In this document: one piece after another, positions 13,317-52,660 of the stretch
Numbering within the stretch: position 1 is the first letter of the stretch
How the letters are laid out: every line of letters starts with the position of its first letter
Source of the DNA: Gammaproteobacteria bacterium
GTDB lineage: Bacteria; Pseudomonadota; Gammaproteobacteria; Steroidobacterales; Foliamicaceae
Assembly (NCBI GenBank): GCA_028821145.1
Contig: JAPPHC010000023.1
Span: 5,305-69,304, forward strand
DNA length: 64,000 bases
Direction: 5' to 3'
Program-made: the position numbers and the translations under genes
Notes under the pieces: model-generated
Databases searched by the model: none
Told to the model about the DNA's origin: nothing
The model's input: the letters and a program-made list of their open reading frames with translations, nothing else

Positions 13317-13317
13317 A

Positions 13318-14194: not shown

Positions 14195-14203
14195 GCGAGC
14201 TGC

Positions 14204-14449: not shown

Positions 14450-14492
14450 CCGTCATACCTCCTCATGGTGCGGGACGCACACAAACTATTGG

Positions 14493-18644: not shown

Positions 18645-18762
18645 AGCGCGTCCACGGCGGACAAATGAATGGCGGCTTGCGCCAGAGCCGGACGCATCCC
18701 TGCCGGGAGGTACGCCGGGCTGAGGGACAGAAGATCGAACATACGATGACGGGAGAACTGCG

Positions 18763-19116
18763 ATGAACCGGAACCGATCCAGCAATCACCAGACGACAGA
18801 CGCGGAGGCGAAGCGGCGGCCTCACTCGATTCGGTTTCTCGACCCGGAATGGGAGCGCATCGAAGTCTTCGCCGATCAGCGCGGCCTCACCGCTCCCGAG
18901 TTCGTCCGGTTCGCTGCGCTTGTTGCGATAGAGAACGGGAGCGAACCGGTCGCCAAGCTGATCCCGCTGATCAAGAGGACGTTCCGCGGGACCCACATAT
19001 TGGCGTCGAGATTGCGCGTCGAGATGCTCGACGCGGGCGAGCAGGAAGAGCTCGATGCGATGATCGCCGCAGCCCGCGGGCTTCAGAACGAGTTGATCGG
19101 CTCCCAATCGGACTGA
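18763..19116 (+). CDS. Small relaxase-adjacent protein, possibly ribbon-helix-helix DNA-binding
   Basis: RBS GGGAGA. The segment RPHSIRFLDPEWERIEVFADQRGLTAPEFVRFAAL has a strand-helix-helix pattern like relaxosome accessory or RHH proteins. Tentative. Confidence 0.5.
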   Translation: MNRNRSSNHQTTDAEAKRRPHSIRFLDPEWERIEVFADQRGLTAPEFVRFAALVAIENGSEPVAKLIPLIKRTFRGTHILASRLRVEMLDAGEQEELDAMIAAARGLQNELIGSQSD

Positions 19117-19137
19117 GCGGCCAATTGCGCTCGCTGT

Positions 19138-19179
19138 CAAATTTGCAATTTGCTACAGTGCCGCCCGAATTTGAAATTC
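19138..19179. promoter_or_regulatory. AT-rich palindrome/repeat cluster upstream of the 19349 gene
   Basis: Contains CAAATTTG (palindrome, 19138-19145), AATTTG repeated at 19140, 19147 and 19168, and GAATTT-G-AAATTC (6-1-6 inverted repeat, 19167-19179). Confidence 0.35.
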
Positions 19180-19348
19180 ACTGGTATGGGCGTGAGCAGG
19201 TGCTGCGAACAGTTCGACTACAATAACCGTTTGGAGCCGTGTCCGCTGCGCTGCCGGAAACGGAAGTTGTAGCACCGATAGCAGTAATCACTCACTATCC
19301 GGCGCTGCTTGACCTCACACCTGAGCCCAAGCTCGAAACGATATTCAA

Positions 19349-21112: not shown

Positions 21113-21234
21113 GCCAAGCCCATGCCTACCTGTACGATGTCTAAGTCGTTCACCAGCAGCTCCACGATTCTAGCCGTCGCCACCATGACGGAGGCCATGA
21201 GCAGTCCGCGAATTCGAGGCGACGAATAGGACTG

Positions 21235-21497
21235 CTATCTCCAGAGCGTTGGTCGGAGCGTGAGAGTCCGACCTGTAACGAGCGCGAACAGCAGGAAGAT
21301 CGTCTTCGTACTGTGGCTTTCGTTCGCGGTGCTGGAGGGCCACTGACGCGACAAATCTGGGTTCGGATTCCCGATGCTCCAGAGCATCGCGAGCAGTCGA
21401 ATTGACTGCTCGTAGGAAGGCTCCTGATTCCCCAGAGAACCGAAGCCCAAGAAACGTTTGCCATTTCAACACGATACTCGCGGTTCTCCAGAGAACC
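21235..21497. repeat. Array of related 16-bp palindromic sites sharing a CYCCAGAG core, interleaved with hairpins
   Basis: Palindromic sites: GATGCT-CCAG-AGCATC (21373-21388), GATTCC-CCAG-AGAACC (21426-21441), GGTTCT-CCAG-AGAACC (21482-21497) and a degenerate copy at 21235-21250. Hairpins: GGTCGGA-N9-TCCGACC (21251-21273) and CGAGCAGTC-GAATT-GACTGCTCG (21390-21412). Confidence 0.6.
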
Positions 21498-21885
21498 AAC
21501 TCGATCCGGCAAGTGCGAGGCGCTCCATGTCGCCGAAAACGCATGGGAATGCAGGACAGGCGCGCGCCTGGCACACCCCGCAGAGGAACTGCGCTCAGGT
21601 GTGAAAACCGAGCCGCCTCCGGCGTCGAGGAGAGCACCGGGAGGCGGCATTCAGTAAGGGAAGAACGGCGCCGGCGAACGCGGCGGGCGTGAGCCGCCGC
21701 GGCGCGTGAGCGGACGGCGGTGCGGACGGAGCTGCGGGCAGGCGTGCGCAGCACGCTGCCGGACGCGGCGGCGGAATCGGCTGCACGCGGGCGGACATCG
21801 GTTGCAGCAGCGATGCGGACGGACGTGCGGATGCCGATGCGCAGCGAAGCCGCCGTCGGCGACGCGCGGAGCGCGGACAGCGCCG

Positions 21886-21931
21886 ACCAAAAAAGAAGCG
21901 GGCCGCGCCGCCGGAGAGCGACGCGACCCGC
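21886..21931 (-). terminator. Rho-independent terminator ending the minus-strand gene block
   Basis: On the minus strand GCGGGUCGCG-N14-CGCGGCCCGC (10 bp, one G-U) is followed by UUCUUUUUU. It starts 14 nt after the stop at 21946. Confidence 0.6.
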
Positions 21932-21945
21932 GGGGCCGGTGCGGG

Positions 21946-22875
21946 CTACGCCGCGCGGCAGCGCTGCACCGGGATGCCGAGCTTGACGGCCTTGTCGACG
22001 AGGTTGTCGGTGATGCCTGAGCCGGGGAAGGCGATGACGCCCTTGGGCAGCAGGTTGAGCAGGTCGTCGTTGCGCCGGAACGGTGCGGCCCGTCCGTGGC
22101 GGTCCCAGTCGGGCTTGCACACCACCTGGTGCACGCCGTGGCGTTCGGCCCACTGTGCGGCGAAGCGTTCCACGCCGGGGCCGCCGCCGTGCACGAGCAC
22201 CATGTCGCTGTACTTCGCGCGGGCGGTGTCGAGGCGCCGGAAGATGGCGTCCACGTCCGTGACGTTCTTGCCGCCGGCCACCGCGATCAGGGTGCCGTCG
22301 GGCAGGTGCGCCTGGGTCTCGCGATCCTTGCGGGCGCGCAGGAAGTCGCGGGCGTCGATGGCCGCGGAGGTGAGTTTCCGCGTCTGGCTCGTGTGGCTGC
22401 CGTAGCGCGGGCGCCAAGTGTCGCCGGTGGCTTCGCGGTAGGCGTCGGCGGCGGTGTCGCGCATCTTCTCGAACGCGTCGCGCCGCTTGCCGAGGTTCTG
22501 CGCCCGGTCGGTCGTGAGTTCGAGTTCGCGGGCGTTGATCTCGGTGCCGTCCTGGGCGCGTTGCAGGTCGCGGAGCTTCGGGGCCAGCCGGTCGACGCCG
22601 CGGTCGAGCCTGCGGACCTGGGCGTCGAGCATGTTGACGAAGCCCCAGAGCATGGACTCGCGCTCGTCGGCGAGTTGGGTGCCGTCGGGCGCCACGTTGC
22701 CAGCGAGGATGCTGAACGCTTCGCTGACCGCGGCGAGCGCGTCGTCCCGGTCCCAGACGTCCCTGGGGTCGAACTCGTCGCGCCCGGGCGTTGCGCCGTA
22801 GAGTGCCGCGTTCTCGCAGATGACTGCCGTGGGCGATTGCGCCTGTTGGGCTTGCAGTGTGTCGTAATCGAACAT
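21946..22875 (-). CDS. DUF2493-like (SLOG-type) protein with coiled-coil N-terminal half
   Basis: RBS AGGAGA upstream of ATG 22875 (MFDYDTLQ). The C-terminus VLVHGGGPGVERFAAQWAERHGVHQVVCKPDWDRHGRAAPFRRNDDLL...GVIAFPGSGITDNL is the pattern I recall for DUF2493. Confidence 0.75.
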   Translation of the reverse strand: MFDYDTLQAQQAQSPTAVICENAALYGATPGRDEFDPRDVWDRDDALAAVSEAFSILAGNVAPDGTQLADERESMLWGFVNMLDAQVRRLDRGVDRLAPKLRDLQRAQDGTEINARELELTTDRAQNLGKRRDAFEKMRDTAADAYREATGDTWRPRYGSHTSQTRKLTSAAIDARDFLRARKDRETQAHLPDGTLIAVAGGKNVTDVDAIFRRLDTARAKYSDMVLVHGGGPGVERFAAQWAERHGVHQVVCKPDWDRHGRAAPFRRNDDLLNLLPKGVIAFPGSGITDNLVDKAVKLGIPVQRCRAA

Positions 22876-23274
22876 GAGAGTGTCTCCTGTAACAAGATGA
22901 GAGATGAGCCAGATGGCCCGGAGCATCGGAAGAGCGTCTCCCGACGTAGGTTTATTGGTTCACGCGCGCGCAGTGCCGTCACCGCCTTGGCGGCCGCAGC
23001 GAAGCGTAGGACCCGCGCTTGCGCGGGTTGACGGTGCGAGCACGTGTGAAACAATGGGCCTTCGTCGGGAGGAGCTTTTGTTTCCATGACCGCCGTGTTC
23101 CCTGGCAAGCGGAGTGCGCAGCGAGCCTGCGAGCGGAGGCGCGAGGGATTGCAGCGGAAATCGGAGCTTGCGGAGATTGGAGCGTAAAGCCCGGTCGCGA
23201 AGCGACGCGCACAAAGTTCTGTCCTGCATCCGCGCCGCTGCCGATCCGAACCGCAATCCCGTAGTCCACGCCGC

Positions 23275-27878: not shown

Positions 27879-30800
27879 TCACGCGGGCGGCCAGCGTTCG
27901 AGCACCCGGCCGAGCGTCCCGGCGTCCGGCGCGAACACGCGGGCGCGGTAGGAAACGATCTCCACCGTGCAGCCGAGGCGCTTGAGCGCCGGCAGATCGG
28001 TGTCGGCGGGGCCCTCGATCTCGACGCGGTCGGCGCCCATGAGGCGGCGCCGTGCGACGCGCCAGCCGTTGGCCAGCGGGACGGCGGCCCCGCGCGAAAG
28101 CACCGCCTCGAACGCCTCCTCCCCGGTCATGTCGAACCCGCCGCCCAGGCCGAACGCCTGCCGCACGGCGCGGACCTGTTCGGCATCGAGCACGCGCCCG
28201 ATCAACGCCGCGCCCTCGTCGGTGGTGAGCCGGCGCACGCGCATGTTCTCCGCGGGCAGCCGGTCCCAGACCGGCAAGAGAAGCCCCGTGGCGAGCCAGA
28301 ACCGGGATTCCCGGTGCGACGGCAGCGCGACCACCTCCGCGTCCCAGATGCGCCGCCAGTCGGCCTCCGGTGCCCGGCGCCAATGCGAGGCGCGCAGTTC
28401 GTCGCGCGCCATCGACTGGCGGGCGTCGGGCCGCACGAGACGCAGGCGCTCCTGCACCCCGCCGTCGTCGAACAGCCGCGACGGCGCGGACAGCACCACC
28501 GCGGCGCGCTGAGAGCGGGTGTTGACCGCGAGTCTCGGGTTGCCGTCGGGTCCGGGATCGCGGGTGGCGAGCGCGAGCGCCGCGTCCGCCGTTGTCGGCT
28601 GAAGCCGGTCGCGGCGCAGGATCTCGACCAGCTCCGTTGCCGCCCCGGTCCCGGGGTGATCGTACAGTGTTTCCCGTCCGGCCACGGCCAGCGAGTCCGC
28701 CTGCACCGTCTCGACGCCGAGCTCGTAGGTGCCGGCTTCGACGGCCTGCTCGATGTTGGCGGCGATGCGCGTTTCAAGCTCGGCGAACAGCTCGTTCTGC
28801 TCGTCGATGGGCAGCGCCAGCAGCCGGTTCAGGAACTTCGGCATGGGCGGCAGGTTTTCCTTCAGGGAACCCTCGTGGGAGAGTTTGAGGCCGGTCGCGT
28901 CCTCGAACCGCTCCGGCGTCCAGCCGCCGATGCGCCCGAGCCACAGCGAGCCGTAGAACTGGCGCAGCGCCGCCTTGGCGTAGACGCTTTCCAGGTTGTC
29001 GCTCTCGCGGAACAGCGATTGCCCGCCGCCCATGGCGGTCTGGCTGTCTCTCTGCCCGCGGGTGATGGCGCCGAGGCTGTCGAGCCGCCGGGCGATGGTG
29101 GCGATGAACCGGCGCTCGCCCTTCACGTCGGTGGCCACGGGCCGGAACAGCGGAGAGAAAGCCTGGTGCGTGCGGTGCGTCCTGCCGAGCCCCTGGATCG
29201 CCTGGTCGGCCCGCCATCCGGGTTCCAGCAGGTAATGCACGCGCCGCTCGGTGTTGGCGCACGAGAGGTCGGCGTGGTAGCTGCGCCCGGTGCCGCCGGC
29301 CATGGAGAACACCAGGATGCGCTTGGTCCCGTCCATGAACGCGGCGGCCTCGGACAGGTTCGCCGACGCCGGCCGGTTGCGCAGCGCCAGGCGCTCGCCG
29401 CGCGCGTCGGCGATACGCAATACCCGCCGCGAGCGCCCGGTCACCTCCGCCACGGCGTCGTGCCCGAAGTGCTGCACGATCTGGTCGAGCGCGGCAGGTA
29501 CCGGCGGCAGCGCCGCGAGTTTCTCGATCAGGGCGTCGCGCCGGTCCACTGCCTCGCCGCAGAGCACGGGATTGCCGTCGGCGTCGAACACCGGCCGCGA
29601 CATCAGGTTGCCCTCGGCGTCGGTGAACGGTTCCTGGAGCTGCACCGGGAACGCGTGGGCGAGGAACTCGATCACGGTCTCCCGGGGCGTGAGATCGACG
29701 TTGAGATCGTCCCATTCCGAGGCCGGGATCTCGGCGAGCCTTCTCTCCATGAGCGCCTCGCCTGTGGACACGAGCTGCACCACAGCGGAGCGCCCCTGCT
29801 CAAGATCGGCCTCGATGGCGCGGATCAGCGACGGGCACTTCATGGAAGTGAGCAGGTGGCCGAAGAACCGTTGCTTGGCGCCCTCGAACGCCGACATCGC
29901 CGCGGATTTCGCGTTGCGGTTCAGCGTCGATTCGCCGTCGGCGATGCCGGTGGCGTTCAGCGCCTCGGTGAGATTGGCGTGGATGACCTTGAACGCCCCG
30001 GCGTAGGCGTCGTAGATGCGCCGCTGGGCGTCGCTCAGCGGGTGTTCGAGGATGTCCACTTCCACGCCGTCGTAGGACAGCGCGCGGGCCTGGTAGAGGC
30101 CGAGCGCCTTGAGATCGCGCGCGACCACTTCGAGTGCGGCGACGCCGCCCGCCTCCATGGCGGAGACGAACTCCGCGCGGGTCTCGAAAGGGGTCTCGCC
30201 GGAAGCCCAGAGTCCCAGCCGCCCGGCGTAAGCCAGCCCCGGCACGGTCGTGGCGCCGGTGGCGGAGACATAGACGACGCGCGCGTCCGGCAGCGCGTGC
30301 TGGAGCCGTAGACCGGCACGGCCCTGCTGCGAGGGCGCGATGTCGCCGCGATTGCCCTTGCCGCCCGCGGCGTTGGCCATGGCGTGGGCCTCGTCGAACA
30401 CCACGACCCCGTCGAAGGCGTGGCGATCGTCCTCGTCGAGGCTGCCCGCGAGCCATCCGACGATCTGGTCGAGCCGCGAGGCGACCTGCCGTCGCGCCAG
30501 CGACCCCTGTCGGGCCGGCGAGCGCAGGGTCGCGTAGGTCGCGAACAGGATGCCTTCGGTGAGCGGGATCTCCGCGCCCTGGCGGAACTTGCCGAGGGGG
30601 ATCACGTCGGTTTCCCGGCCCCCGAGCGCAAACCAGTCGCGGCGCGCGTCCTCCAGCAGCTTGTCGGACTGCGACAGCCAGAGCGCCCGGCGCTGTCCCT
30701 TGAGCCAGCGGTCGAGCACAAGGGCGGCGACCTGCCGGCCCTTGCCCGCGCCGGTGCCGTCGCCGAGCATCCAGCCGCGCCGGAATCGCACCGGTTCGGA

Positions 30801-32408
30801 CAGCGTCTCGCCGTCGGCGGTGGCGCCGTCATCCTGCGGTTCGCCGTCCTCGCCGCAGCGATGCACGGTTTCCCAGCCCGAGCCGATGCGGTAGCGGGCC
30901 GCAAGGTGTCCGGCATGGGCCGCGCCCGCGAGCGCGACGCTCTCGAGCTGGGCATCGGACAGCGCCGCCCCGGTCACGACCCGTTCCGGCAGCATCGGCC
31001 GGTACGACGGCGTCGGATGCGGGACGGCCGCCATGGCCGCGGACTGCACCAGCGGGGTCGGATGGGCGGTGGCGCCCGGCACCCGCACCACGCTCGGGCG
31101 CCACGCCGCGTAGGGGCCGGCGGATGGGGTCCCGGACGATTCGGTGTCGGGAACGGCCGCGCCTCCGATATCCAGTTCCGCCACGGTCCCCCAATCGTGG
31201 GCGGGCTGCGCGGCAGGCCGGGCGGCGTTCCGGCGGGCCGTGGCGGATTGCCGAGTTCGTGGGCCCGGGACGTGCCCGAACAGGTCGGCGCCGGGCGCGG
31301 GTTCGACGCTCGGCCGCGGCGGGACGGAAGCGATCACGGCGTCGAGCAGTTCGGCGGTATTGGCGGCGCGGGCCGAGGGATCGACGGCGATGCCGGGTTC
31401 GGAACTCCGGTCGACGACCGTGAGCCGCGTCTCGAACCCGGTGCCCCGCCGCGCGTAGGCGCGCCCGTCGATGGCCATCGTGAACACGACGCGCGCGCCG
31501 GACTGCGGCGCGAACGCGCCGTCCCAGGCCGCATCCCCGGGCACGCAGTTCGCCGAGGTGACGGCGACGAGCCGGCCGCCTTCGGGCAGCATCGCGAACG
31601 CCGAGCGGACGTGCCTGAGGTCCGCGCCGCGGCGGCTGCGCGACACGCCCGGGGTGGCCGAGAACGGCGGGTTCATCAGCACCACCGACGGCCGCACGTG
31701 CGGCAGGAAGTCGGCGAGGGCTTCGGCGTTGTGGCGGGTGACTTCGGCCTCCGGGAACAGCCCGGCGAGGACTGCCGCCCGCACGGGCGCGATTTCGTTG
31801 AGATGCAGCGCGCCCACAGCTTGCCGCCCGAGCGCGCACTGGGCCATCACGGCGAGCATTCCGGTGCCGGCGGACGGTTCGAGCACGGCATCGCCGGGCC
31901 GCACGGCGGCGGCCTTCAGCGCCGCGTAGGCCATCGGCAGGGGCGTGGAGAACTGCTGCAGGCGCACCTGTTCCTCGGACCGCCGGGTGTGCGAGGGCTC
32001 CAGCGCCGCCAGGGCGCAGAGCATGGCGAGCATGTTGGCGGGACCGTCCGGGCCGGCTCCGGCGCGGCGGCGCATGGCGCGCCCGTAGCGTTGCAGGAAC
32101 AGCACCAGCGCGGCCTCGGCCGCTTCGTAGGCGTCCTTCCAGGCCCAGGCGCCCCCGGCGTCGGTCCCGCCGAACGCGCGGGTCATGGCGTCTCTCAGCG
32201 TGGACGCGTCGAGCGGTCGGCCGCCCTCCAGAGCGGACAGCAGGGTCCGGGCCGCGGCGATGAGGGCTTCGGCCCTGGCGGGCGGCAGGACGGACTTGGC
32301 GGACGGCGGGACAGTCTTGGCAGACGGCGAGACGTGGCCCGCGAAAGGCGCGAGTGGCGGGGCGGACGGGCGCGCGGCGGCGTCCGCCGGGGAAACGGCG
32401 TCGGGCAT
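27879..32408 (-). CDS. N6-adenine DNA methyltransferase fused to strawberry-notch/SNF2-like helicase (1509 aa)
   Basis: Methyltransferase motif I VLEPSAGTGMLA and motif IV VVLMNPPF. Helicase motif I GDGTGAGKGRQ and motif II VVVFDEAHAMAN. Long C-terminal helicase region as in plasmid/ICE strawberry-notch proteins. Confidence 0.9.
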   Translation of the reverse strand: MPDAVSPADAAARPSAPPLAPFAGHVSPSAKTVPPSAKSVLPPARAEALIAAARTLLSALEGGRPLDASTLRDAMTRAFGGTDAGGAWAWKDAYEAAEAALVLFLQRYGRAMRRRAGAGPDGPANMLAMLCALAALEPSHTRRSEEQVRLQQFSTPLPMAYAALKAAAVRPGDAVLEPSAGTGMLAVMAQCALGRQAVGALHLNEIAPVRAAVLAGLFPEAEVTRHNAEALADFLPHVRPSVVLMNPPFSATPGVSRSRRGADLRHVRSAFAMLPEGGRLVAVTSANCVPGDAAWDGAFAPQSGARVVFTMAIDGRAYARRGTGFETRLTVVDRSSEPGIAVDPSARAANTAELLDAVIASVPPRPSVEPAPGADLFGHVPGPRTRQSATARRNAARPAAQPAHDWGTVAELDIGGAAVPDTESSGTPSAGPYAAWRPSVVRVPGATAHPTPLVQSAAMAAVPHPTPSYRPMLPERVVTGAALSDAQLESVALAGAAHAGHLAARYRIGSGWETVHRCGEDGEPQDDGATADGETLSEPVRFRRGWMLGDGTGAGKGRQVAALVLDRWLKGQRRALWLSQSDKLLEDARRDWFALGGRETDVIPLGKFRQGAEIPLTEGILFATYATLRSPARQGSLARRQVASRLDQIVGWLAGSLDEDDRHAFDGVVVFDEAHAMANAAGGKGNRGDIAPSQQGRAGLRLQHALPDARVVYVSATGATTVPGLAYAGRLGLWASGETPFETRAEFVSAMEAGGVAALEVVARDLKALGLYQARALSYDGVEVDILEHPLSDAQRRIYDAYAGAFKVIHANLTEALNATGIADGESTLNRNAKSAAMSAFEGAKQRFFGHLLTSMKCPSLIRAIEADLEQGRSAVVQLVSTGEALMERRLAEIPASEWDDLNVDLTPRETVIEFLAHAFPVQLQEPFTDAEGNLMSRPVFDADGNPVLCGEAVDRRDALIEKLAALPPVPAALDQIVQHFGHDAVAEVTGRSRRVLRIADARGERLALRNRPASANLSEAAAFMDGTKRILVFSMAGGTGRSYHADLSCANTERRVHYLLEPGWRADQAIQGLGRTHRTHQAFSPLFRPVATDVKGERRFIATIARRLDSLGAITRGQRDSQTAMGGGQSLFRESDNLESVYAKAALRQFYGSLWLGRIGGWTPERFEDATGLKLSHEGSLKENLPPMPKFLNRLLALPIDEQNELFAELETRIAANIEQAVEAGTYELGVETVQADSLAVAGRETLYDHPGTGAATELVEILRRDRLQPTTADAALALATRDPGPDGNPRLAVNTRSQRAAVVLSAPSRLFDDGGVQERLRLVRPDARQSMARDELRASHWRRAPEADWRRIWDAEVVALPSHRESRFWLATGLLLPVWDRLPAENMRVRRLTTDEGAALIGRVLDAEQVRAVRQAFGLGGGFDMTGEEAFEAVLSRGAAVPLANGWRVARRRLMGADRVEIEGPADTDLPALKRLGCTVEIVSYRARVFAPDAGTLGRVLERWPPA

Positions 32409-43521: not shown

Positions 43522-44403
43522 ATGCGCGTGACGCCGGCGATTTCGGTCATTGCCGTTCTGCTCGCGGCGGGCTCGGTGGCCAGGGCAGCGGACGCCGGGT
43601 CGGCGCGGTCAGGGTGGTATCTGGGCGCTGGCCTTGGCGCGGGATGGACCTCCGACCTGACGCAGGAAGGCTGGAACCGGGACCGCTTCTGCACCCCGGA
43701 CGCGGCGTGTTTCGACGAAGTGCCGATCCCCGCCGTGTCGGGCTACCGCTGGCGCTACGACATCGCACTGGACAGCGGCGCGGCGTTCGAACTGTCCCTC
43801 GGCCGGTTCTTCGGACGAACCCGGCTGGAGCTGGCGGTCGCGCAGCGGACGAACGACACCCGCCAGACGTTCGCAGGCATCGCCTACCTCGACGGCTCGG
43901 CCATCCGGCCTCGGGCCGGCGGCACCGTCGCCTCCAATGGACGCGGCGCGATCGACCGCCGGCGCGTGCGTTCCGTTACCCTGGAGGCCTATTACGATTT
44001 CCCGAACGCCTGGGGTGCGCTCACGCCGTTTGTCGGCGCCGGGCTCGGGCAGTCGTCCGTGGAAATGGCCGGCGTGCGGTTCTCCACCGACTACCGCAAC
44101 GTGTCCGCCGCGGCCGAGGTCCACGACCCGCCGCTCTCGTTCTACAACAGCGCGCAGGACGAGGACCTGAACGACACCGCGTTCGTCTGGCGGGTGCACG
44201 CCGGGGCGGACTACGCGCTGGGCCGCAGGACCTCGTTGGGGTTGCGGCTGAGCTGGTCGGCGACCGGAGATTTCGAGGACAGCGGGACCTACAAGACGCA
44301 CCCGATGCATGGCGTGGACCCTGCCTTCACGAACACCAATACGTTCAGCGGTGGGCGAAGCTGGACCCTCGTGCTCGCGTTCAGGCGCGGGATCGGCGAA
44401 TGA
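43522..44403 (+). CDS. Outer-membrane beta-barrel protein (OmpW/OMP_b-brl-like)
   Basis: Signal peptide ending ARA-AD. GWYLGAGLGAGW first strand, alternating-hydrophobic strands. Cys pair FCTPDAAC in the first loop. Confidence 0.7.
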   Translation: MRVTPAISVIAVLLAAGSVARAADAGSARSGWYLGAGLGAGWTSDLTQEGWNRDRFCTPDAACFDEVPIPAVSGYRWRYDIALDSGAAFELSLGRFFGRTRLELAVAQRTNDTRQTFAGIAYLDGSAIRPRAGGTVASNGRGAIDRRRVRSVTLEAYYDFPNAWGALTPFVGAGLGQSSVEMAGVRFSTDYRNVSAAAEVHDPPLSFYNSAQDEDLNDTAFVWRVHAGADYALGRRTSLGLRLSWSATGDFEDSGTYKTHPMHGVDPAFTNTNTFSGGRSWTLVLAFRRGIGE

Positions 44404-44488
44404 ACGCGGCGGCGCCCAACGGCGTGACTCCCGTGGCGCCCACCGCCGCGTCATGAACGACTCCCTGTTCCCCCCCGAGAGGCATGCC

Positions 44489-45424
44489 ATGGGCAATCGG
44501 CGGTCCCCGCGCAGGCACTTCGCCGTGCTGCTCGCGTTCCTGGGCGCAACGCTTCTGCCCGCGCAAGCGCAGGCCGAGCCGCTTTATGCGAGTGTTTCGC
44601 TGGGCGGCAACGTCACCGGCGACGTCACGCTGCGCAGCCGCAGCAACGATCGCGCCAGCATCTGCGACGAATACATCAACCCGCGGGCGTTGTCGGTGCC
44701 CGGCTGCACCGCGCCGGGCCGCGGTGCGGGGGACGGATGGGCCGCGCCGTTCGACGGCGGCCGGGGTTTCTCCACCGAAGCGGCACTGGGGTATCGCTTT
44801 TCGCCGCGATTCAGGGCGGCCGTCGTCTACGGTTACCACACGACGCATTTCGATCAGACCGTGTCCTCAACCGACGCCTCGGGCGTCGACTTCGACAAGA
44901 TCGGCAACGAACTGTCCACGGGCGAGGAGTCGCTGGGTACGGCGAGTTCCCACGAACTGTTCGCCGTCGCTTATCGCGACTGGCCCAACCGCAGCCTGTG
45001 GACGCCTTTCGCCGGCGTGGGAGTCGGCGTTGCGAAGGCGCGCAAGGACTTCTCCTGGCTCTGGGCACGGAGCGCCAACCCGGACGACATCCTCACCGGG
45101 CGCGACCAACCCAACGCGGAAGAGATTCTCGGCAATCTCGCCGGAACGGTCAGCACGGGCCGCTCGGCGCTCAAGGACACCATGACCGGATTCCTCGTGC
45201 TCGCGGGCGCCTCACGGCCCGTTTCGGACACGGTTACCGTGGCGTTCAAGGTCCAGTGGACCCGATTCGCCGCGTTCGAGTCCGGGGCTTACGGGGGCGG
45301 CGTGCTGCGCAGCCACCCGCCGAACCTGCGCCTGGACGGCAGCGAGCCGGTGTCCACCTGGACAAGGACCGAGGACACGGACCGGTACTCCATCGTGCTG
45401 ACGATGCGGTTCACCTTGCCGTAA
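44489..45424 (+). CDS. Outer-membrane beta-barrel protein, paralogue-like
   Basis: Signal peptide ending AQA-EP. LYASVSLGG first strand, Cys pair ICDEY...VPGC. Beta-strand periodicity to the C-terminus (YSIVLTMRFTLP). Confidence 0.7.
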   Translation: MGNRRSPRRHFAVLLAFLGATLLPAQAQAEPLYASVSLGGNVTGDVTLRSRSNDRASICDEYINPRALSVPGCTAPGRGAGDGWAAPFDGGRGFSTEAALGYRFSPRFRAAVVYGYHTTHFDQTVSSTDASGVDFDKIGNELSTGEESLGTASSHELFAVAYRDWPNRSLWTPFAGVGVGVAKARKDFSWLWARSANPDDILTGRDQPNAEEILGNLAGTVSTGRSALKDTMTGFLVLAGASRPVSDTVTVAFKVQWTRFAAFESGAYGGGVLRSHPPNLRLDGSEPVSTWTRTEDTDRYSIVLTMRFTLP

Positions 45425-45672
45425 CGGGCCCGGAAGAGGATGGGTTGTCACCACGTTACTGCGTCTCGCGACAGCGGTTCCGCGCCCAAATCCCGGATGC
45501 CGATCGACGGCGCCAACCGGCCGATCGGATGGCGGCGTGCCGGCGCGGCGCTATAGAATGCCCCCATCCCCGCCGATACGCCGATGGACCCGGTTTTCGG
45601 CGAAGTGAGAGGACAGCGGTTCGCCGGTCGGGCGCGGTTGCGGCCCCGACACCGAGCCGCCCGCAGACGCGC

Positions 45673-46848
45673 ATGCTGACGTTCACCGAAGAGATCCTGC
45701 TGCTGCTCGGCGACGACGAGGGCGCGTTCCTGCCGATCCGGGAACACGCCTTCGAGTGCGCGCTGGCCGGCGCGGCGCTGATGGACCTGGCGTTCGCTTA
45801 CCGCATCGACACCGACCTCGAGTCCCTGCTTGTCATCACCTCGGAGCCGACCGGCAATCCCATGCTCGACGCGGTTCTCGCCCGGATCGCTTCCCATCCG
45901 GACGCGGCGGACACGCAGCACTGGATCCGGGTGCTGTCCACCGAGGACGCGGCCGCGATTCGCGAGCAGGCGCTCGCGAGCCTCGTCGAACACGGCATTC
46001 TGGAGCGGCGCGAGGAGCGGTTCCTGTGGGCGTTCGGCTCCGTTCGCTATCCCACACTCGATAACGGCGCCGAGCGGGAGATCAAGGCACGCATCGCACG
46101 CGCGCTCGACGACTTCATCCCCGACCCCCGCGACATAGCCCTGATCTCGCTGGCCGACGCCTGCCAGATCCTGCCCGAGCTCTTCCCGGACCGGAATATC
46201 GAGCCCGCCAGGATCGCGCAGTTGCGAAGGATGGACCTGATCGGCCGCGAGGTCGCCGGGACGATTGCCGACATACAGCGCACGATCGTGCGCGCCGCCC
46301 AGGCTCAGGCGCAACGCACCCAGAAACGGCTGCTGTCGCTCTCAATCGCCGCGGCCGTGGGCGCCGCGGCCGTGCTGCTCGCCCCCCGCATCCCGGCGCC
46401 GGACCGATTCGACCCCGGCGTTCTGGAGCTTTTCTGGTTCGACGGGTTCTGGCAGCAATGGAGCGGCTACCTGCTGCTGGCGTTCAGCATCGCCGGACTT
46501 GTCATCGGCGTGGCCGTCAGAAAGCGGCTCGTATCCGGCATCGCCGGCTTGCGCCGGTGGCGTCTCGCCCACATCGTCATCGGCGTCGCCTGCGTGCTCG
46601 CGCTGTTCGCCCATACCGGCTTTCGCCTCGGCGTCAACGTCAACGCGGCGCTCATGGGGTTCTACCTCGCCACGCTCCTTTCCGGCGCGCTCGCCGGCGT
46701 CGCGATCGGCGCCGTGCACCGGCTCCGCCAAGCGGGGATCGGCCGGACCGGCCAACCGCGCCGCGTCCTGCTGTGGCTGCATGTCGCGGCCATCTGTCCG
46801 CTGCCGGCGCTGCTGGCCGTGCACATTCTCGCGACGTACCTGTACTGA
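45673..46848 (+). CDS. GPP34/GOLPH3-like domain fused to a 5-TM four-histidine (dihaem-b-like) membrane domain
   Basis: N-terminus MLTFTEEILLLLGDDEGAF...LAGAALMDLA is GPP34-like. The C-terminal TM helices carry HIVIGVACVLALFAH and HVAAICPLPALLAVH (His i/i+14 in each of two helices). Confidence 0.7.
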   Translation: MLTFTEEILLLLGDDEGAFLPIREHAFECALAGAALMDLAFAYRIDTDLESLLVITSEPTGNPMLDAVLARIASHPDAADTQHWIRVLSTEDAAAIREQALASLVEHGILERREERFLWAFGSVRYPTLDNGAEREIKARIARALDDFIPDPRDIALISLADACQILPELFPDRNIEPARIAQLRRMDLIGREVAGTIADIQRTIVRAAQAQAQRTQKRLLSLSIAAAVGAAAVLLAPRIPAPDRFDPGVLELFWFDGFWQQWSGYLLLAFSIAGLVIGVAVRKRLVSGIAGLRRWRLAHIVIGVACVLALFAHTGFRLGVNVNAALMGFYLATLLSGALAGVAIGAVHRLRQAGIGRTGQPRRVLLWLHVAAICPLPALLAVHILATYLY

Positions 46849-46857
46849 GCGCCCCGG

Positions 46858-48372
46858 GTGTCGTCGAAGGCCGTTTTCTGGTGGGTGGGAACAACGCTGC
46901 TCGTCGCAGCGTACGTTGCGGCCACGATGGTCGTGGGCGGCGATCGCCGCGCGCTTCTCATCGGCAGGACCACCGATGCCCACCATCAGATCGAGATGGC
47001 CTGCGAGACCTGCCATGCGGCGGGTCCGTTCGCCGGGGCGGCGGCGGCCGAGACGGCGCTGAACGAGACCTGCCGAACCTGCCATGAGGACGAGTTGAAT
47101 GCCGCCGACGACAGCCACCCCCGCTCGATGTTCCGCAACCCGAGAATGGCGGCCTACTGGGAGAAACTCGATGCGCGCCTGTGCACGAGCTGTCACGGCG
47201 AACACCGGCCCGAGATCACCCGGACGGGCGCGGTTACGGTCGCGATGGACTTCTGCGTCGCATGCCACTCCGACGGCGAGCAGGATGTCCGGTTGGATCG
47301 ACCCAGCCACGCGGGCGTCGCCTTCGAGACCTGCGCCACGGCGGGTTGCCACAACTACCACGACAACCAGGCGCTGTACGAGGAGTTTCTGGTCGAACAC
47401 GCCGGCGAACCGGCGCTGAAGCCCGGGCCCGTGCATGCAACGGCCGCGCGTTTGCGTGCGCTTCAACCGCCTGGTGGAACGGCGCTCGAACGCGACGACG
47501 CGATCGCGCCCGCAGCCGCCCTGGCCGACACGACAGTGCTCGCTCGGTGGACGGGTTCGGACCATGCGGCTGCGGGCGTGAATTGCACCGCGTGTCACGC
47601 GGTGGATCCCGCCGCCGAGTCCGGGCCGGCTGACATTGCGGCCCGGTCCGGGCCCACCGACGTTGCGGCCCAATGGGTCGAGACGCCGTCAACCGGAACG
47701 TGCAAGTCCTGCCACGAACCGCAGGCACGGTCCTTTGCCAGGGGCCGGCACGGCATGCGCGAACATCCCGGCATCGCACCGCCGCGCAACCCGATGGAAG
47801 GACTGGAGCGGATCGGCTTGTCCCGCGTGCTGCCAGCGATCGTGGCCGACTGGCTCGCCGATCCTGTCCCGCCCACACGCATGACCGTGGGCGAGGCGCG
47901 CCTGCCGATGCGCGGCGACGCCGAGGCGCACCGGGCGCTCGATTGCGGCGCCTGTCACCGGCCCCACGACGTGGACACTGCGCTGGCGGCCGTCGAAGCC
48001 TGTGCCTCCTGTCACGACGACCGGCACACGCGCGCCTACGACGGCAGCCCCCACCACCGGCTTTGGCAGGCGGAGTTGTCCGGCGAAGCACCGCCCGGCG
48101 CCGGCGTGAGTTGCGCGACCTGCCACATGCCCGGGACCGAAAGTCGCGACACGGTCACGACCGACCACAACCAGAACGACACGCTGCGCCCGAACGAGAA
48201 GATGATCCGGTCCGTCTGCCTCGACTGCCACGGGCTTGAGTTTTCGCTCGACGCGCTGGCCGACGCCGGTCTGATCGGCCGCAACTTTACCGGGATCCCG
48301 GCGGTTCACGTCGAGAGCGTGGAATGGGCCGTGCGGCGTTCCGCTGCGGACAGGCCTGGCACGGCCCGTTGA
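46858..48372 (+). CDS. Membrane-anchored multihaem cytochrome c (11 haem motifs)
   Basis: GTG start 9 nt after the upstream stop, N-terminal TM anchor. Ten CXXCH motifs (CETCH, CRTCH, CTSCH, CVACH, CTACH, CKSCH, CGACH, CASCH, CATCH, CLDCH) plus one CX4CH (CATAGCH). Confidence 0.9.
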   Translation: MSSKAVFWWVGTTLLVAAYVAATMVVGGDRRALLIGRTTDAHHQIEMACETCHAAGPFAGAAAAETALNETCRTCHEDELNAADDSHPRSMFRNPRMAAYWEKLDARLCTSCHGEHRPEITRTGAVTVAMDFCVACHSDGEQDVRLDRPSHAGVAFETCATAGCHNYHDNQALYEEFLVEHAGEPALKPGPVHATAARLRALQPPGGTALERDDAIAPAAALADTTVLARWTGSDHAAAGVNCTACHAVDPAAESGPADIAARSGPTDVAAQWVETPSTGTCKSCHEPQARSFARGRHGMREHPGIAPPRNPMEGLERIGLSRVLPAIVADWLADPVPPTRMTVGEARLPMRGDAEAHRALDCGACHRPHDVDTALAAVEACASCHDDRHTRAYDGSPHHRLWQAELSGEAPPGAGVSCATCHMPGTESRDTVTTDHNQNDTLRPNEKMIRSVCLDCHGLEFSLDALADAGLIGRNFTGIPAVHVESVEWAVRRSAADRPGTAR

Positions 48373-48426
48373 CCGCCGGGTGACCGCCCCGAAATCCGGC
48401 TTTAGAATCGGGCAGAGGAGAAAAAA

Positions 48427-48990
48427 ATGAAACACAGGAAACTCTTGATCGCCACCGGGTTCGCGCTCGCCGCCGTAACCGCGATGGGGGCCGCAGCCCA
48501 GGGAATTCCCTACGCGAAAGTCGCCGACATGCTCTACCGGGTCATGTCGGCGGATCGCGAGGTCTATACCCGCTTGGTGGTGCAACGGCTCACGGTCGAC
48601 GAGGAGATCCTCACCGCATCGGAGCACTTCGAGGACGAGGCGGCGCTGCCGCTGCCGGCGCAGATGTTCCGCTTCGGCGCCGAAACCGTGATGGACAACA
48701 CCGAGGACTTCTCCTACGCCCTGCTCTCGCTCGATCCGATCAACAGCAACAATGGACCTGTGACGGAACTGGAGCGTGAAGGTCTGCAATTCGTTGCCGA
48801 GAACCCGGACGAGAACTTCTACGGCGAGGAGGAACTGGGCGGCGAGCGGTACTTTGCGGCGGTGTACGCGGACCGCGCAGTCGCCGAAGCCTGCATCGAG
48901 TGCCACAACAACCACAGGGACTCGCCGCGAACCGGCCTTGAGGTGGGCGACGTGATGGGGGGCGTGGTCATCCGCATCCGCCTCGATTGA
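48427..48990 (+). CDS. Periplasmic mono-haem protein (DUF3365/Tll0287-like)
   Basis: RBS GAGGAG, signal peptide (AVTAMGAAAQG). Single CIECH near the C-terminus in the context AVAEACIECHNNH. Confidence 0.75.
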   Translation: MKHRKLLIATGFALAAVTAMGAAAQGIPYAKVADMLYRVMSADREVYTRLVVQRLTVDEEILTASEHFEDEAALPLPAQMFRFGAETVMDNTEDFSYALLSLDPINSNNGPVTELEREGLQFVAENPDENFYGEEELGGERYFAAVYADRAVAEACIECHNNHRDSPRTGLEVGDVMGGVVIRIRLD

Positions 48991-49219: not shown

Positions 49220-49429
49220 TCACAGATCGCTGACCGCCGAGCCCGATTCTTGTGCGGCCTGGCGGTGTTCGGCCTTGAGCGCAAGCTGTGCGCACTCCTT
49301 GCACAGCGGCCTGTCGCCCGTGCCGAGTCGCAACTGGCGCACGATGATGTTGCCGCCCTGTCGGCAATGCTCGTTGTTGTGGTGTACCGGCTCCTTGACC
49401 GAATACCATGGCGACGTGACACTCGTCAT
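49220..49429 (-). CDS. Small Cys/His-rich protein (69 aa)
   Basis: WYSVKEPVHHNNEHCRQGGNIIVRQLRLGTGDRPLCKECAQL resembles a small conserved Zn-ribbon-like family (HxNxxC...NxxxxxxxxGxxxxxxxCxxC). No clear RBS. Confidence 0.4.
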   Translation of the reverse strand: MTSVTSPWYSVKEPVHHNNEHCRQGGNIIVRQLRLGTGDRPLCKECAQLALKAEHRQAAQESGSAVSDL

Positions 49430-50049
49430 GGCGAGTCGGGAGCACTCGGGCGGTTGGCCGGTGAGCGGCCCGGAACATTCCCCGTCATCGCGCCCATCGC
49501 CGCGGCCCGACGGGGCCATCGCCTCGATCGGCTCATGGAACGCGTCCGCCGGCTCGGCAGTCGCATCATTGGTCGCGTTGCCAAAGCCGACGGACACAAC
49601 GATCCCGATGCGCTGGAACTCAGGAGCGCGAGGTATCGGCAGCGGCCCAGGCGTGGCATCGGTGCGGGAAGCAGGCGAAACGCCGGTACGGTATCGGCCA
49701 TGATGTCCAAACCGCTGGGCACAAGTCTCCCTTCCTCTTCCGTTCGCGCTTCGGCGCCTGCTTACTCCGTCGATAATAGGTGACCGATCGCGGCCCGGCA
49801 ACGCCGGGTGGCTTGGCTGCGGGTGCGAAGCTCGGTACAGATGACGGTCTCGGTGCGGGAGGGCCTCAGCTCCGTCATGGCCTTGAGGGTGGCGGTCACG
49901 CGAAAGGCCCCGCGACCGTTCCTCCCTGCATTCCCCCCGCGGAGCCTTGCCATGGCCGCGATCATGCTGCCGCGTCCTTCGTGCCGGCGGTGGAAACGGC
50001 GGCAATGCCCTACCCGGAAACCCCACCGCCGTACAGCGCAGGGAAAACG

Positions 50050-51255
50050 TTATCGTGCCGGCCCCGGTGCGTCTGTCTCCCCATGCAAATCCGCCCGCAG
50101 GCTCTCGGCGACGCGCGCGGCTGACGCCTTCACCGAGTCCCGCGCCAAGTGCGCGTAGCGGGCGGTGGTCTGTACCTTCCCGTGGCCCAACAGCTTGCCG
50201 ATCATCGGCAGGCTCTCGCCCAGCGCCAGCGCACGGGACGCGAATGAGTGCCGGAGATCGTGAATGCGAACGTCTTTCAGATCGGCGCGGGTCCGGATGA
50301 CCTGCCAGGCGCTGTTGATGTTGGTGACGCGCCGGCCCGGCTTCGTACCGGCGATCACCCAGGGATTGCCGGGCACGCGCGGCAGGCCCTCCAGAACCCG
50401 CCGGGCGGAGGGCGAAATCGCCACCGCCCGCGCGCCCGTCTTGGCGTCGCGCAGCCGAAGCTCGCCAGCCTCGAGATCCACGTCCTCCCAGCGCAGCGTC
50501 AGAATCTCGGTCTTGCGGCACCCGGTCAGCATCAGCAGACGAAACGCCGCCACCGCGCTTGGATGCACCTTGCCCTCGGCCTCGACCTCGCCGAGCACCC
50601 GGCCCAGACGCTTGAACTCCTCCTCCGACAGAAAACGCTCGCGGGGCAGCTCGGCGTACTTGCGGACGAACCGGCAGGGATTGCCGCCCTCCGGGGCAAT
50701 CCCCCACAGTTCGGCCATGTTGAACAGCCGCGACAGCATATCCACCACCTTGTTCGCCATGGTGGGCGTCTCGTGCAAGCTGTAGTGCAGGGCCGCGACG
50801 CGCTCGCGCCCGATCCGTCCGAGCCGGACGTTGCCCAGCGCGGGCAGCAGGTGGCGGTCGAGGATGTCGCGGCATTGCCGTCGCGTCGCCGGCTTGCAGC
50901 GCACCGCGACATGCTCGGTCATGAACCGTTCGGCCACTTCGGCCACGGTGGGACCGGCGTCCGCCGGGGCTGCGCCATTGTGCAACACCGGCTCGTTGCC
51001 GGCCTTGATGTCGGCGATGATCTGCGCCGCCTTGCGCCGAGCCTGCTCCGCCGTGATCAGGCCATGGCGCCCGACCTTCAGTCGGCGGGACCTGCCGCCC
51101 GCGCGGGTCTGGACCAGATAGACCTTGGATCCCGAGGGATAGACCCTCACCCCGAAGCCGGAGAGCGACGAGTCCCAGTAGACCGCCTCGCGGTCGCCCG
51201 CCGGCAGCGCCTCGACCGTGCGCTTGGAAATCGATCTTCGTCGGAGCTTCGCCAT
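50050..51255 (-). CDS. int: Tyrosine site-specific integrase (P4-like, DUF4102-type arm-binding N-terminus)
   Basis: The N-terminus has YWDSSLSGFGVRVYPSGSKVYLVQTR. Catalytic region has VRIHDLRHSFAS and LGHGKVQTTARYAHL. GGAG RBS lies inside the 3' end of the upstream integrase. Confidence 0.9.
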   Translation of the reverse strand: MAKLRRRSISKRTVEALPAGDREAVYWDSSLSGFGVRVYPSGSKVYLVQTRAGGRSRRLKVGRHGLITAEQARRKAAQIIADIKAGNEPVLHNGAAPADAGPTVAEVAERFMTEHVAVRCKPATRRQCRDILDRHLLPALGNVRLGRIGRERVAALHYSLHETPTMANKVVDMLSRLFNMAELWGIAPEGGNPCRFVRKYAELPRERFLSEEEFKRLGRVLGEVEAEGKVHPSAVAAFRLLMLTGCRKTEILTLRWEDVDLEAGELRLRDAKTGARAVAISPSARRVLEGLPRVPGNPWVIAGTKPGRRVTNINSAWQVIRTRADLKDVRIHDLRHSFASRALALGESLPMIGKLLGHGKVQTTARYAHLARDSVKASAARVAESLRADLHGETDAPGPAR

Positions 51256-51259
51256 CGCG

Positions 51260-52429
51260 CTACTCCAGGATGTCCGCGCCGATGCTGTCGGCGACCTTCG
51301 CGGTGGAGGCCTGGATGGACTCCCTCGCCAGATGCGCGTAGCGCGCGGTGGTGTTCACCTGCCGATGACCGAGCAGCTCCCCGATCATCGGCAGACCCTC
51401 GCCGATGGCGAGGGCGCGGGAGGCGAAGGTGTGGCGCAGGTCATGGAGGCGCACATCGTCGAGGCCGGCGCGGCGGCGGACGCGGTCCCAGGAATCGTTG
51501 ATGTTGACCTGGTGCGTGCCCTTCCTCTTGCCGGGGAACACCCACGGATTGCCGTCGATCCTCGGTAGTTCGGCCAGCACCTCTGCGGCGGCCGGCGGCA
51601 TCGGCACAACCCGCCCGCCGGTCTTGCTGTCCCTCAGCCGCATCTCGCCGGCCTCGAAATCGAGGTCGTCCCAGGCCAGACCCATGATCTCGTTCCTGCG
51701 GCAACCGGTCAGCACCAGCAGGCGGATCGCCGCCGCCGCGTGCCGCGAGGCCAGATGCTCGGCGGGGGCATTCTCAAGGACGCGCCCGAGCCTCGCCAGC
51801 TCCTTCGGCGTCAGGAACCGCTCCTTGCGCCGAACGACCTTGTAGCGGCGAACCGACTTGCAGGGATTGCGGCCCGGTGGACGCATCTCCCAAAGTTCCG
51901 CCAGATTGAACATCTTGACCAGGATGTCCACGCAGCGGTTGGCCACCGTGGGCATGTCGCTCAACTGGTACTGGAACTTGAGAATCTCCCTGCGCTCCAC
52001 CTCGGCCACCTTGAGTCCCCCGAGCCGCGGCACGATGTGCTTGTTCAGCATCAGGCCGTAGTGCTTGATCGTATTGGGCTTGCAGTGCATCGCGACGTGC
52101 TCGCGCTGATACCGTCCGGCGAGATCGGACACCGTCGGCGGAGCCTCGGGTTCGCTCTCGACCGGGGGCAGGCCGGCCTTGATTCGCCCGATGATCTTCG
52201 CGGCGTCCTTGCGGGCCCGGTCCGGGGCGATGTCACCGTGACGGCCCACGGTGACCCGCCGGGACTTGCCCGCGACCCGCGTCTGCACCACGTAGACCTT
52301 GCGCCCGCTCGGATAGACCCGGACACCGTAGCCCGGCAGCTCCCGGTCCCAGAACACGGTATCCTTGTCGTCGACCGAGAGCCGGTCCACGGTGCGCTTG
52401 GACAAAGTGCGGTAGTTGGGCTGGGGCAT
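51260..52429 (-). CDS. int: Tyrosine site-specific integrase, second tandem paralogue
   Basis: Start MPQPNYRTLSKRTV at 52429. FWDRELPGYGVRVYPSGRKVYVVQTR, then VRLHDLRHTFAS and LGHRQVNTTARYAHL. The stop is 4 nt before the next integrase ATG. Confidence 0.9.
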   Translation of the reverse strand: MPQPNYRTLSKRTVDRLSVDDKDTVFWDRELPGYGVRVYPSGRKVYVVQTRVAGKSRRVTVGRHGDIAPDRARKDAAKIIGRIKAGLPPVESEPEAPPTVSDLAGRYQREHVAMHCKPNTIKHYGLMLNKHIVPRLGGLKVAEVERREILKFQYQLSDMPTVANRCVDILVKMFNLAELWEMRPPGRNPCKSVRRYKVVRRKERFLTPKELARLGRVLENAPAEHLASRHAAAAIRLLVLTGCRRNEIMGLAWDDLDFEAGEMRLRDSKTGGRVVPMPPAAAEVLAELPRIDGNPWVFPGKRKGTHQVNINDSWDRVRRRAGLDDVRLHDLRHTFASRALAIGEGLPMIGELLGHRQVNTTARYAHLARESIQASTAKVADSIGADILE

Positions 52430-52660
52430 TGCGTTCGTCGGTCGGGTTCGGGGTTCGGTTCGAGCCGGACTCGATTGCGCCGATTTACCGTAAGCGAATC
52501 GAAAGCGACCGGCTCGAAATATGAGCGTATTACATCGCATTTTTGGCGTCGGCGCAAGGGGCGAGGCAAGTCGGGAAGTGTATATTTATAGAGCATTTAC
52601 AATAATTTATACGGGTTCGGCGCACTCCGGCGCGTCCGAGGCAGAAGCTGGGAAAGAGTG

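Follow-up and report, generated by a model that had tools for sequence, protein, structure and literature searches.

In Geobacter (CbcL/Cbc, ImcH) and Shewanella (CymA), b-type or membrane-anchored entry points feed periplasmic multihaem c-type cytochromes, and the outer-membrane barrels of the MtrB/PioB type are proteins of about 650-800 amino acids (aa) with 20-26 strands. In the NOX, FRE, MsrQ and DUF4405 families a histidine pair is found on each of two transmembrane (TM) helices, giving one inner and one outer haem position, and for DUF4405, with its four central histidines, haem b binding has been shown experimentally and transmembrane electron carriage has been proposed (PMC11334425). 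Here we analyze a cluster of five plus-strand genes (43522-48990) in a 64,000-nucleotide (nt) stretch of contig JAPPHC010000023.1 from a gammaproteobacterium, hereafter the window, where the cluster is cargo on an integrative and conjugative element (ICE). The cluster consists of two separately conserved units: a pair of barrel genes (43522-45424) and a three-gene module (45673-48990) that encodes a four-histidine membrane protein, an 11-haem c-type cytochrome and a mono-haem periplasmic protein. We consider it fairly probable that the three-gene module takes up electrons at the cytoplasmic face of the inner membrane and delivers them to haems in the periplasm in a NOX/DUF4405-like manner, and does not carry them through the entire envelope.

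The three genes of the module lie close together, with the membrane protein gene (45673-46848) separated by 9 nt from the cytochrome gene (46858-48372) and this in turn, by 54 nt, from the gene for the mono-haem protein (48427-48990), which belongs to the DUF3365/Tll0287-like (sCache_heme) type. The five plus-strand genes, together with the cysteine pairs, the H-x13-H helices, the 9-nt and 54-nt spacings and the haem motifs listed for them in the original prediction, were all confirmed. About 100 related loci were compared overall, and counts out of 80 refer to the best 80 cytochrome-carrying loci, queried with the five window proteins; individual loci are given by their L numbers. This revealed that the membrane protein, the cytochrome and the DUF3365/Tll0287 protein are adjacent and collinear in approximately 77 of the 80 loci. 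The cytochrome itself is present in at least 582 species-level genomes. Most of its carriers are uncultured Alpha- and Gammaproteobacteria, many of which have sponge-associated names, and cultured Rhodobacteraceae carry it as well; the close relatives of the window are mostly metagenome-assembled genomes (MAGs) bearing sponge-associated names. Some MAGs hold two or three diverged copies of the module on separate contigs (L017/L022/L023 in one Chromatiales MAG; L004 and L044; L005 and L030; L025 and L042). The literature searched, on DUF3365 together with multihaem proteins, GPP34 together with cytochromes, multihaem proteins of sponge symbionts, and DUF4405, yielded no account of the three-gene module, which appears to be undescribed.

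The membrane subunit occurs in different forms. In 49 of the 80 loci, a GPP34 domain precedes the TM domain, while in 27 the TM domain is preceded by Pyr_redox_2, Rubredoxin_C and Fer2_BFD domains. Operons of the latter, reductase-type form, such as that of Pelagimonas phthalicica DSM 26923 (L078 5989-10971) and those of 26 further loci (L041, L048, L057-L082), are ordered as a reductase-BFD-TM protein of approximately 665 aa, the 11-haem cytochrome, the Tll0287-like protein, a class I cytochrome c (which follows in 22 of the 27) and a cytoplasmic globin (24 of the 27). Isolates with a reductase-type operon include, besides P. phthalicica, Donghicola eburneus DSM 29127, Thalassococcus halodurans DSM 26915 and Tritonibacter litoralis.

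The C-terminal region of the window membrane protein (46324-46848, plus strand) is a five-TM domain and a predicted di-haem cytochrome b. Hydropathy and the positive-inside rule indicate five TM helices within the last 200 residues and a cytoplasmic N-terminal domain, with the pairs H300-x13-H314 and H370-x13-H384 located on predicted TM3 and TM5. All four histidines are invariant in 23 diverse sequences that include both architectures. The histidine geometry is that predicted for a two-haem transmembrane cytochrome b, in which H300 and H370 would hold the cytoplasmic-side haem and H314 and H384 the periplasmic-side haem. Sub-threshold Pfam matches were obtained among the 23 members to DUF4405 (12 of 23, best E=0.0026), Ni_hydr_CYTB (6 of 23) and Ferric_reduct (3 of 23, best E=0.0022), all of them two-haem cytochrome b families. 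The domain resembles NOX, FRE, MsrQ and DUF4405 in carrying a histidine pair on each of two TM helices, but differs from them in that its similarity is only sub-threshold and in having five predicted TM helices versus six.

An exhaustive phmmer scan of the TM domain over 1.84 billion representatives returned 489, in all of which the TM domain is C-terminal and among which lengths of about 650-720 aa dominate. In each of ten atypical-length representatives scanned for domains, a Fer2_BFD [2Fe-2S] domain lies ahead of the TM domain; nine of these add Pyr_redox_2, Rubredoxin_C or FAD_binding_6/NAD_binding_1, and one has BFD alone. Two of the nine are extended further, and relatives of this regulated kind have EF-hands or two cyclic nucleotide monophosphate (cNMP)-binding domains placed before BFD, FAD_binding_6 and NAD_binding_1 (P0503, 951 aa, and P0474, 867 aa), and the relatives with EF-hands have an architecture like that of regulated NOX5. 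FAD and NAD(P)H domains on the same chain as the TM domain are not a feature of the window protein, which has GPP34 instead, but are present in 27 of the 80 loci and, judged by length and sampled architectures, in most of the 489 representatives. It is because homologues fuse the TM domain to NAD(P)H-FAD-[2Fe-2S] reductases that we argue for transmembrane electron transfer, and the fused domains suggest that the TM domain is where electrons supplied in the cytoplasm by NAD(P)H, flavin and iron-sulfur centres exit through the membrane, with the GPP34 form as the exception. Most homologues thereby share with NOX a cytoplasmic NAD(P)H-FAD module on the same chain. Unlike in NOX, FRE, MsrQ and DUF4405, the reductase of the homologues is N-terminal and accompanied by a BFD [2Fe-2S] domain, and instead of O2, Fe(III), MsrP or a flavinylated protein, the acceptor would be a dedicated cytochrome c with 11 haems that the module itself encodes.

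The domain that stands in place of the reductase in the window protein had been overlooked in the original prediction. Residues 1-195 (45673-46260, plus strand) form an N-terminal, cytoplasmic GPP34 (GOLPH3/Vps74-like) domain that matches PF05719 with E=4e-42 (144.9 bits against a cutoff of 29.1), is modelled by AlphaFold2 with a predicted local distance difference test score (pLDDT) of approximately 90, and retrieves GOLPH3 in the form of PDB entry 3kn1 both by Foldseek (E=9e-9, TM-score 0.65) and by phmmer (E=2.7e-9). Membership of the GOLPH3/Vps74 family is clear in both sequence and fold. In GOLPH3, the pocket for phosphatidylinositol 4-phosphate (PtdIns4P) is made up of W81, R90, R171 and R174 (PMC2806290), and only one of these four positions is kept in the window protein (W81 to R23, R90 to A32, R171 to A94 and R174 to R97).

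A 2025 study found GPP34 to be enriched in sponge symbionts, proposed that it acts as a secreted, PI4P-binding effector and reported four architectures that include fusions to P450, Rieske and ABC ATPase domains (PMC11706023). Given this proposal and the sponge-associated names of most close relatives of the window, the membrane protein might be a host-directed PtdIns4P-binding effector of a sponge symbiont whose adjacency to a cytochrome is incidental. We regard this as extremely improbable: the GPP34 domain is fused to a five-TM, four-histidine domain and has no signal peptide, as expected of an integral inner-membrane protein, three of the four pocket residues are replaced, the cytochrome gene lies 9 nt downstream in 49 of the 80 loci, and NAD(P)H reductases take the GPP34 position in the same TM family. 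The window domain resembles the GPP34-P450 and GPP34-Rieske fusions of sponge symbionts in being joined to a redox protein, but differs from these and from GOLPH3 in being carried on a transmembrane, predicted di-haem domain and in having largely lost the PtdIns4P pocket. The GPP34-TM fusion falls outside the four architectures of PMC11706023, probably because the TM domain goes unrecognised by Pfam. For this subfamily an intracellular role of GPP34, in docking or regulation, seems more likely, since reductases fill the same position in the family and other reported GPP34 partners are redox proteins; the place of the gene in the operon likewise argues for a role inside the bacterium. In one related locus (L090 6795-7988), in a 7-Mb genome, a frameshift splits the GPP34 part beside a transposase-associated gene; the TM part is intact, as are the genes for the cytochrome and the Tll0287-like protein.

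The second gene of the module (46858-48372, plus strand) encodes an undecahaem c-type cytochrome of 504 aa. As originally predicted, it carries ten CXXCH motifs, one CX4CH motif (CATAGCH) and a membrane anchor; composition-matched shuffling gave a mean of 0.06 CXXCH motifs. The anchor is a predicted N-terminal TM segment at residues 5-28, and the protein has no lipobox or other lipoprotein signal, which places it at the inner membrane. The family comprises more than 2365 database clusters of about 495 aa at 60-85% identity. Its N-terminal half holds five haems and is c3/c7-like. In the C-terminal six-haem half, the family profile aligns residues 238-300 and 398-464 collinearly with the octahaem nitrite reductase TvNiR (2zo5; E=3e-9), at stretches that correspond to the first pair and the last pair of TvNiR haem regions; its E-values with NrfA are 1e-6 to 1e-7. 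OmhA and OcwA gave no significant sequence match to the cytochrome in the PDB searches. UetJ, an 'undecahaem' protein of Candidatus Tenderia, was set aside by its description, being extracellular and encoded in an unrelated 10-gene uet cluster.

The similarity to TvNiR and NrfA prompts one to ask if the module is a quinol dehydrogenase of the CymA, NrfH or Cbc-like kind coupled to an 11-haem catalytic N-oxide reductase, acting on nitrite, hydroxylamine or NO, of the NrfA/octahaem lineage. Some database records do label homologues of the cytochrome 'NrfA nitrite reduction protein', and quinol would be a plausible donor for a membrane subunit that lacks a cytoplasmic reductase, as in the window. 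We nevertheless consider such an enzyme unlikely. No CXXCK motif or other atypical catalytic haem motif is present in the cytochrome, and between the two matched stretches lie approximately 100 aa with 2 haems; in the nitrite reductase this distance is approximately 280 aa, and its 4 haems include the active site. The NCBIfam NrfA model scores 15.5 bits against a cutoff of 595, and the NAD(P)H reductase fused in most homologues points to cytoplasmic electrons rather than quinol. The family alignment contains 13 conserved histidines outside the haem motifs, enough for bis-histidine coordination at all 11 haems, and for this reason the cytochrome looks like a wire or capacitor and not a catalyst. 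Its C-terminal half is like the terminal haem regions of TvNiR (2zo5/2ot4) and NrfA in collinearity, yet it is without their catalytic CXXCK haem and the associated domain and adds a five-haem N-terminal half and an anchor. The TvNiR-collinear half fits the modular 'grafting and pruning' view of the NrfA-type cytochrome superfamily (PMC9250108).

The third gene (48427-48990, plus strand) encodes a periplasmic, stand-alone mono-haem c protein of 187 aa with a signal peptide, and its assignment to DUF3365, made in the original prediction, was borne out by PF11845 (E=2e-18; 67.6 bits against a cutoff of 24.1). The haem motif, CIECH at residues 156-160, is conserved in 76 sequences, and no cysteine is found outside it; H67, M80, H163 and M177 are conserved candidates for the sixth or distal ligand. 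The protein is like Tll0287 and other sCache_heme proteins in its above-threshold PF11845 match, its CXXCH near the C-terminus and its periplasmic, stand-alone nature. Unlike Tll0287 and the stand-alone protein of P. putida, as these are described in bioRxiv 10.64898/2026.02.01.703092, it has no second cysteine, which makes Cys/His ligation impossible. The tight linkage of the sCache_heme gene to an 11-haem cytochrome gene in the window is a feature of which the sections of the preprint consulted make no mention.

The preprint describes DUF3365/sCache_heme domains as NO sensors when they are fused to signalling modules, finds that stand-alone sCache_heme proteins show the behaviour of redox proteins and not of NO sensors, and has reduced sCache_heme proteins readily yielding superoxide with O2 (bioRxiv 10.64898/2026.02.01.703092). 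The first of these properties, the role of GPP34 as an adaptor protein in eukaryotes and the cNMP-binding or EF-hand regulatory domains of related TM-domain proteins would be consistent with a periplasmic redox or NO sensor, in which the sCache_heme protein and the haem wire signal across the membrane to GPP34 as an output or adaptor. The redox behaviour of the stand-alone proteins speaks against this, as do the 11-haem wire and the NAD(P)H/FAD/[2Fe-2S] fusions, which are hardware for electron transfer rather than signalling, and no conserved kinase, methyl-accepting chemotaxis protein or GGDEF output was found nearby in the loci inspected. Sensing by the module is in our judgement quite improbable.

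We return to electron export as the reading of the module that we favour, which is built on gene content, motifs, conservation, synteny and domain fusions, with topology taken from prediction. Electrons would enter the TM domain, to which we infer that haem b is bound, and pass from the inner haem at H300/H370 to the outer haem at H314/H384. From the TM domain they would be handed to the membrane-anchored 11-haem cytochrome; the 9-nt spacing of the two genes suggests translational coupling and a stoichiometric complex of the membrane subunit and the cytochrome. The cytochrome would then pass them on to the sCache_heme protein in the periplasm, to a different periplasmic acceptor, or to both. 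For most homologues the donor would be built in, as an N-terminal NAD(P)H-FAD-[2Fe-2S] reductase following a NOX-like logic, and in the clade of the window, where GPP34 replaces the reductase, a separate donor would be needed, which could be quinol or a reductase docking on GPP34. Neighbourhoods of the GPP34 type contained no further conserved neighbour fit to be this missing donor; a divergent flavoprotein gene in L091 and a gene for an NAD-binding protein in L086 were considered, and neither is conserved. The proposed path is like that of CbcL, ImcH and CymA in that a membrane entry point passes electrons to a periplasmic multihaem c-type cytochrome, but the membrane domain belongs to another family and the homologue fusions point to NAD(P)H and not quinol.

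As for the acceptor, our best guess is O2- or NO-linked periplasmic redox chemistry, which might take the form of reductive detoxification or of controlled superoxide formation, because the reductase-type operons continue with genes for a class I cytochrome c and a cytoplasmic globin. Mineral respiration seems less likely than such chemistry. In contrast to metal reducers, the hosts of the module are aerobic marine heterotrophs and sponge symbionts.

The two barrel genes lie upstream of the module. Barrel 1 (43522-44403, plus strand; 293 aa) has a signal peptide and a cysteine pair, Cys57/Cys63, and matches the OmpA/Opacity-like family PF13505 (OMP_b-brl) with E=1e-10. Barrel 2 (44489-45424, plus strand; 311 aa) likewise has a signal peptide and a conserved cysteine pair, Cys59/Cys73, and is a paralogue of barrel 1, as judged from the 25% identity between them. 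The sequence of barrel 2 alone gave no Pfam match, and its family is named by the source databases, which call its 348 matches 'outer membrane beta-barrel' or 'opacity protein-like'. Among 58 members of the barrel family, 41 match PF13505, 11 match Opacity and none matches an MtrB/PioB-type family, and a profile search of the family against PDB sequences found nothing. A crude sequence pattern gives approximately 8-12 strands per barrel, the strand number being based on this pattern and on family membership. Barrels of 293 and 311 aa, signal peptides included, would be too small and could not sheath a cytochrome; they are most likely surface proteins or small channels, with loops predicted to be bridged by the cysteine pairs, and not cytochrome sheaths.

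The gap between the barrels and the module is 248 nt, versus 9 and 54 nt inside the module. Barrel 1 was found in none of the 80 cytochrome loci; three of them have barrel 2 nearby, downstream of the module in L004 and L005 and upstream on the opposite strand in L015. In L089, barrel 1 (81% identity) lies directly upstream of the module; barrel 2, on the opposite strand, follows downstream, and nucleotide comparison shows barrel 2 to be missing between barrel 1 and the module; in L086, barrel 2 is 4 kb from the module with unrelated genes in between. Conversely, the module is missing, within the sequence available, from 13 of 14 other sampled barrel-2 loci (L087, L088 and 11 metagenome loci). 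L087 carries the barrel 1-barrel 2 tandem (44% and 66% identity) without cytochromes in a housekeeping region, between acyl-CoA dehydrogenase and UvrD genes and in the company of UbiA and RecG genes. No cytochromes are found near the barrel-2 homologue of L088 (6001-12362; 66-68% identity), which lies beside a type II CRISPR-Cas locus with a Cas9-like protein, Cas1 and Cas2, and a gene for PNPase. The barrels are not part of the conserved cytochrome machine, despite their recurrent and shifting proximity to it in the closest relatives.

These findings bear on the original prediction that all five genes form a porin-cytochrome (Mtr/Pcc-like) trans-envelope conduit, which would transfer electrons to or from minerals or electrodes, with the barrels letting the haem wire, or electrons, through the outer membrane. 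The cluster is like MtrCAB, PioAB and Pcc in that a multihaem c-type cytochrome gene lies beside outer-membrane barrel genes, here adjacent and on the same strand, and in being borne by a mobile element; mtr clusters have reportedly been transferred horizontally. Barrel 1, barrel 2 or both are within approximately 5 kb of the module in loci of the window type, L089, L004/L005, L015 and L086, and the cytochrome scores 52 bits with Pfam Mtrc-MtrF_II-IV_dom against a cutoff of 30. The protein with this score is, however, the one with the N-terminal TM anchor and no lipobox, and the decahaem models score far under their cutoffs (44.6 bits against 192 for TIGR03508, the DmsE family, and 44.7 against 325 for GSU2203). 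Neither an extracellular cytochrome nor a second cytochrome of the MtrC type is encoded in the cluster, and unlike in MtrCAB, PioAB and Pcc, the cytochrome is anchored in the inner membrane and the barrels are small, OmpA/Opacity-type proteins that are not conserved with it, about 75 of the 80 module loci having no barrel nearby. A five-gene conduit of this kind is in our estimation very unlikely. Of its predicted parts, the inner-membrane entry, the haem wire and the mono-haem partner stand as a conserved set and the outer-membrane barrels fall away as a separate unit, and the idea of a transferable porin-cytochrome conduit is not supported and should be dropped.

Several observations weigh against the electron-export reading or its details. 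The window membrane protein has no cytoplasmic redox domain. Its TM domain falls below every Pfam family threshold, a profile search of it against PDB sequences gave only noise, and its AlphaFold confidence is 50-65. The AlphaFold2 model of the cytochrome is poor (mean pLDDT 58.7 from a 117-sequence alignment), Foldseek of this model against the PDB found no fold match, and that all 11 haems can be bis-histidine ligated is a matter of histidine counting alone. The acceptor proposal takes its hints solely from neighbour genes in the other clade. In addition, several close relatives have barrels in the vicinity of the module, in five arrangements and more often than we would expect from chance adjacency, and a functional link between barrels and module, for example in substrate entry, is conceivable.

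The cluster is carried on an ICE, as the original prediction had held, and lies at one end of it. Conjugation genes for TraH, TraG_N, a TrwB/TraD coupling protein and a TrwC relaxase-helicase are located at 5913-18644 on the plus strand (Pfam E 1e-84 to 1e-138), upstream of the cluster are genes for ParB, DUF2201, a PAPS-reductase-like protein and RadC, and two tandem tyrosine integrase genes with Arm-DNA-bind_3 and Phage_integrase domains (50050-52540, minus strand) mark where the element ends. A relaxase, a type IV coupling protein, mating-pair formation genes and an integrase are all found on one contiguous element, which identifies it as an ICE. The end of the element, including the same five genes, recurs collinearly on three other contigs at approximately 97-98% nucleotide identity. 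In one near-identical copy on a 3.19-Mb contig (L084 15588-17575), homology ends at window position 51915, within the second integrase gene, and genes for a third integrase and a type I restriction enzyme follow. Comparison of L083 with L084 was rejected as proof of two integration sites, since the divergence lies inside the second integrase gene and a secondary insertion is equally likely. No tRNA gene able to serve as an attachment site was found in the window, and a promoter and terminator scan of the cluster was uninformative, with 1 promoter-like site versus 0.5 expected.

Other genes of the element were noted in passing. Two small minus-strand genes (125 and 67 aa; 49220-49965) lie between the module and the integrases, have no Pfam match and are kept in other copies of the element. 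The ICE backbone encodes a 1509-aa Strawberry-notch-type helicase (AAA_34 and Helicase_C_4; 27879-32408, minus strand). At 18000-22000 the G+C content falls to 0.61-0.63 inside the ICE, versus a backbone of approximately 0.72; a 587-aa protein with an OLD-like TOPRIM domain is encoded in this stretch (19349-21112), adjoined by a minus-strand gene for a YspA/SLOG-domain protein (21946-22926), and together they may represent a defence-type insertion in the element.

If the module does export electrons, many marine Alpha- and Gammaproteobacteria would send cytoplasmic reducing power to the periplasm through a long haem wire, and the module would take its place beside MsrQ, DsbD, NOX and DUF4405 among the routes for redox chemistry outside the cytoplasm. 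As ICE cargo, the trait would be transferable. An intracellular role of GPP34 would fit its fusions to P450 and Rieske proteins, and a sizeable share of the sponge-associated 'GPP34 family phosphoproteins' would be subunits of membrane cytochromes instead of candidates for secreted effectors. In the Roseobacter group, most strains have no known enzyme for their regulated production of extracellular superoxide (PMC6414704). We offer, as a speculative extension to which we give only a modest chance, that the unit is an undescribed and widespread class of electron exporter in which GPP34 serves as an intracellular docking or regulatory module and of which the reductase form is a candidate for the Roseobacter superoxide enzyme. 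As cultured isolates carry the reductase-type operon, the module is open to experimental test.

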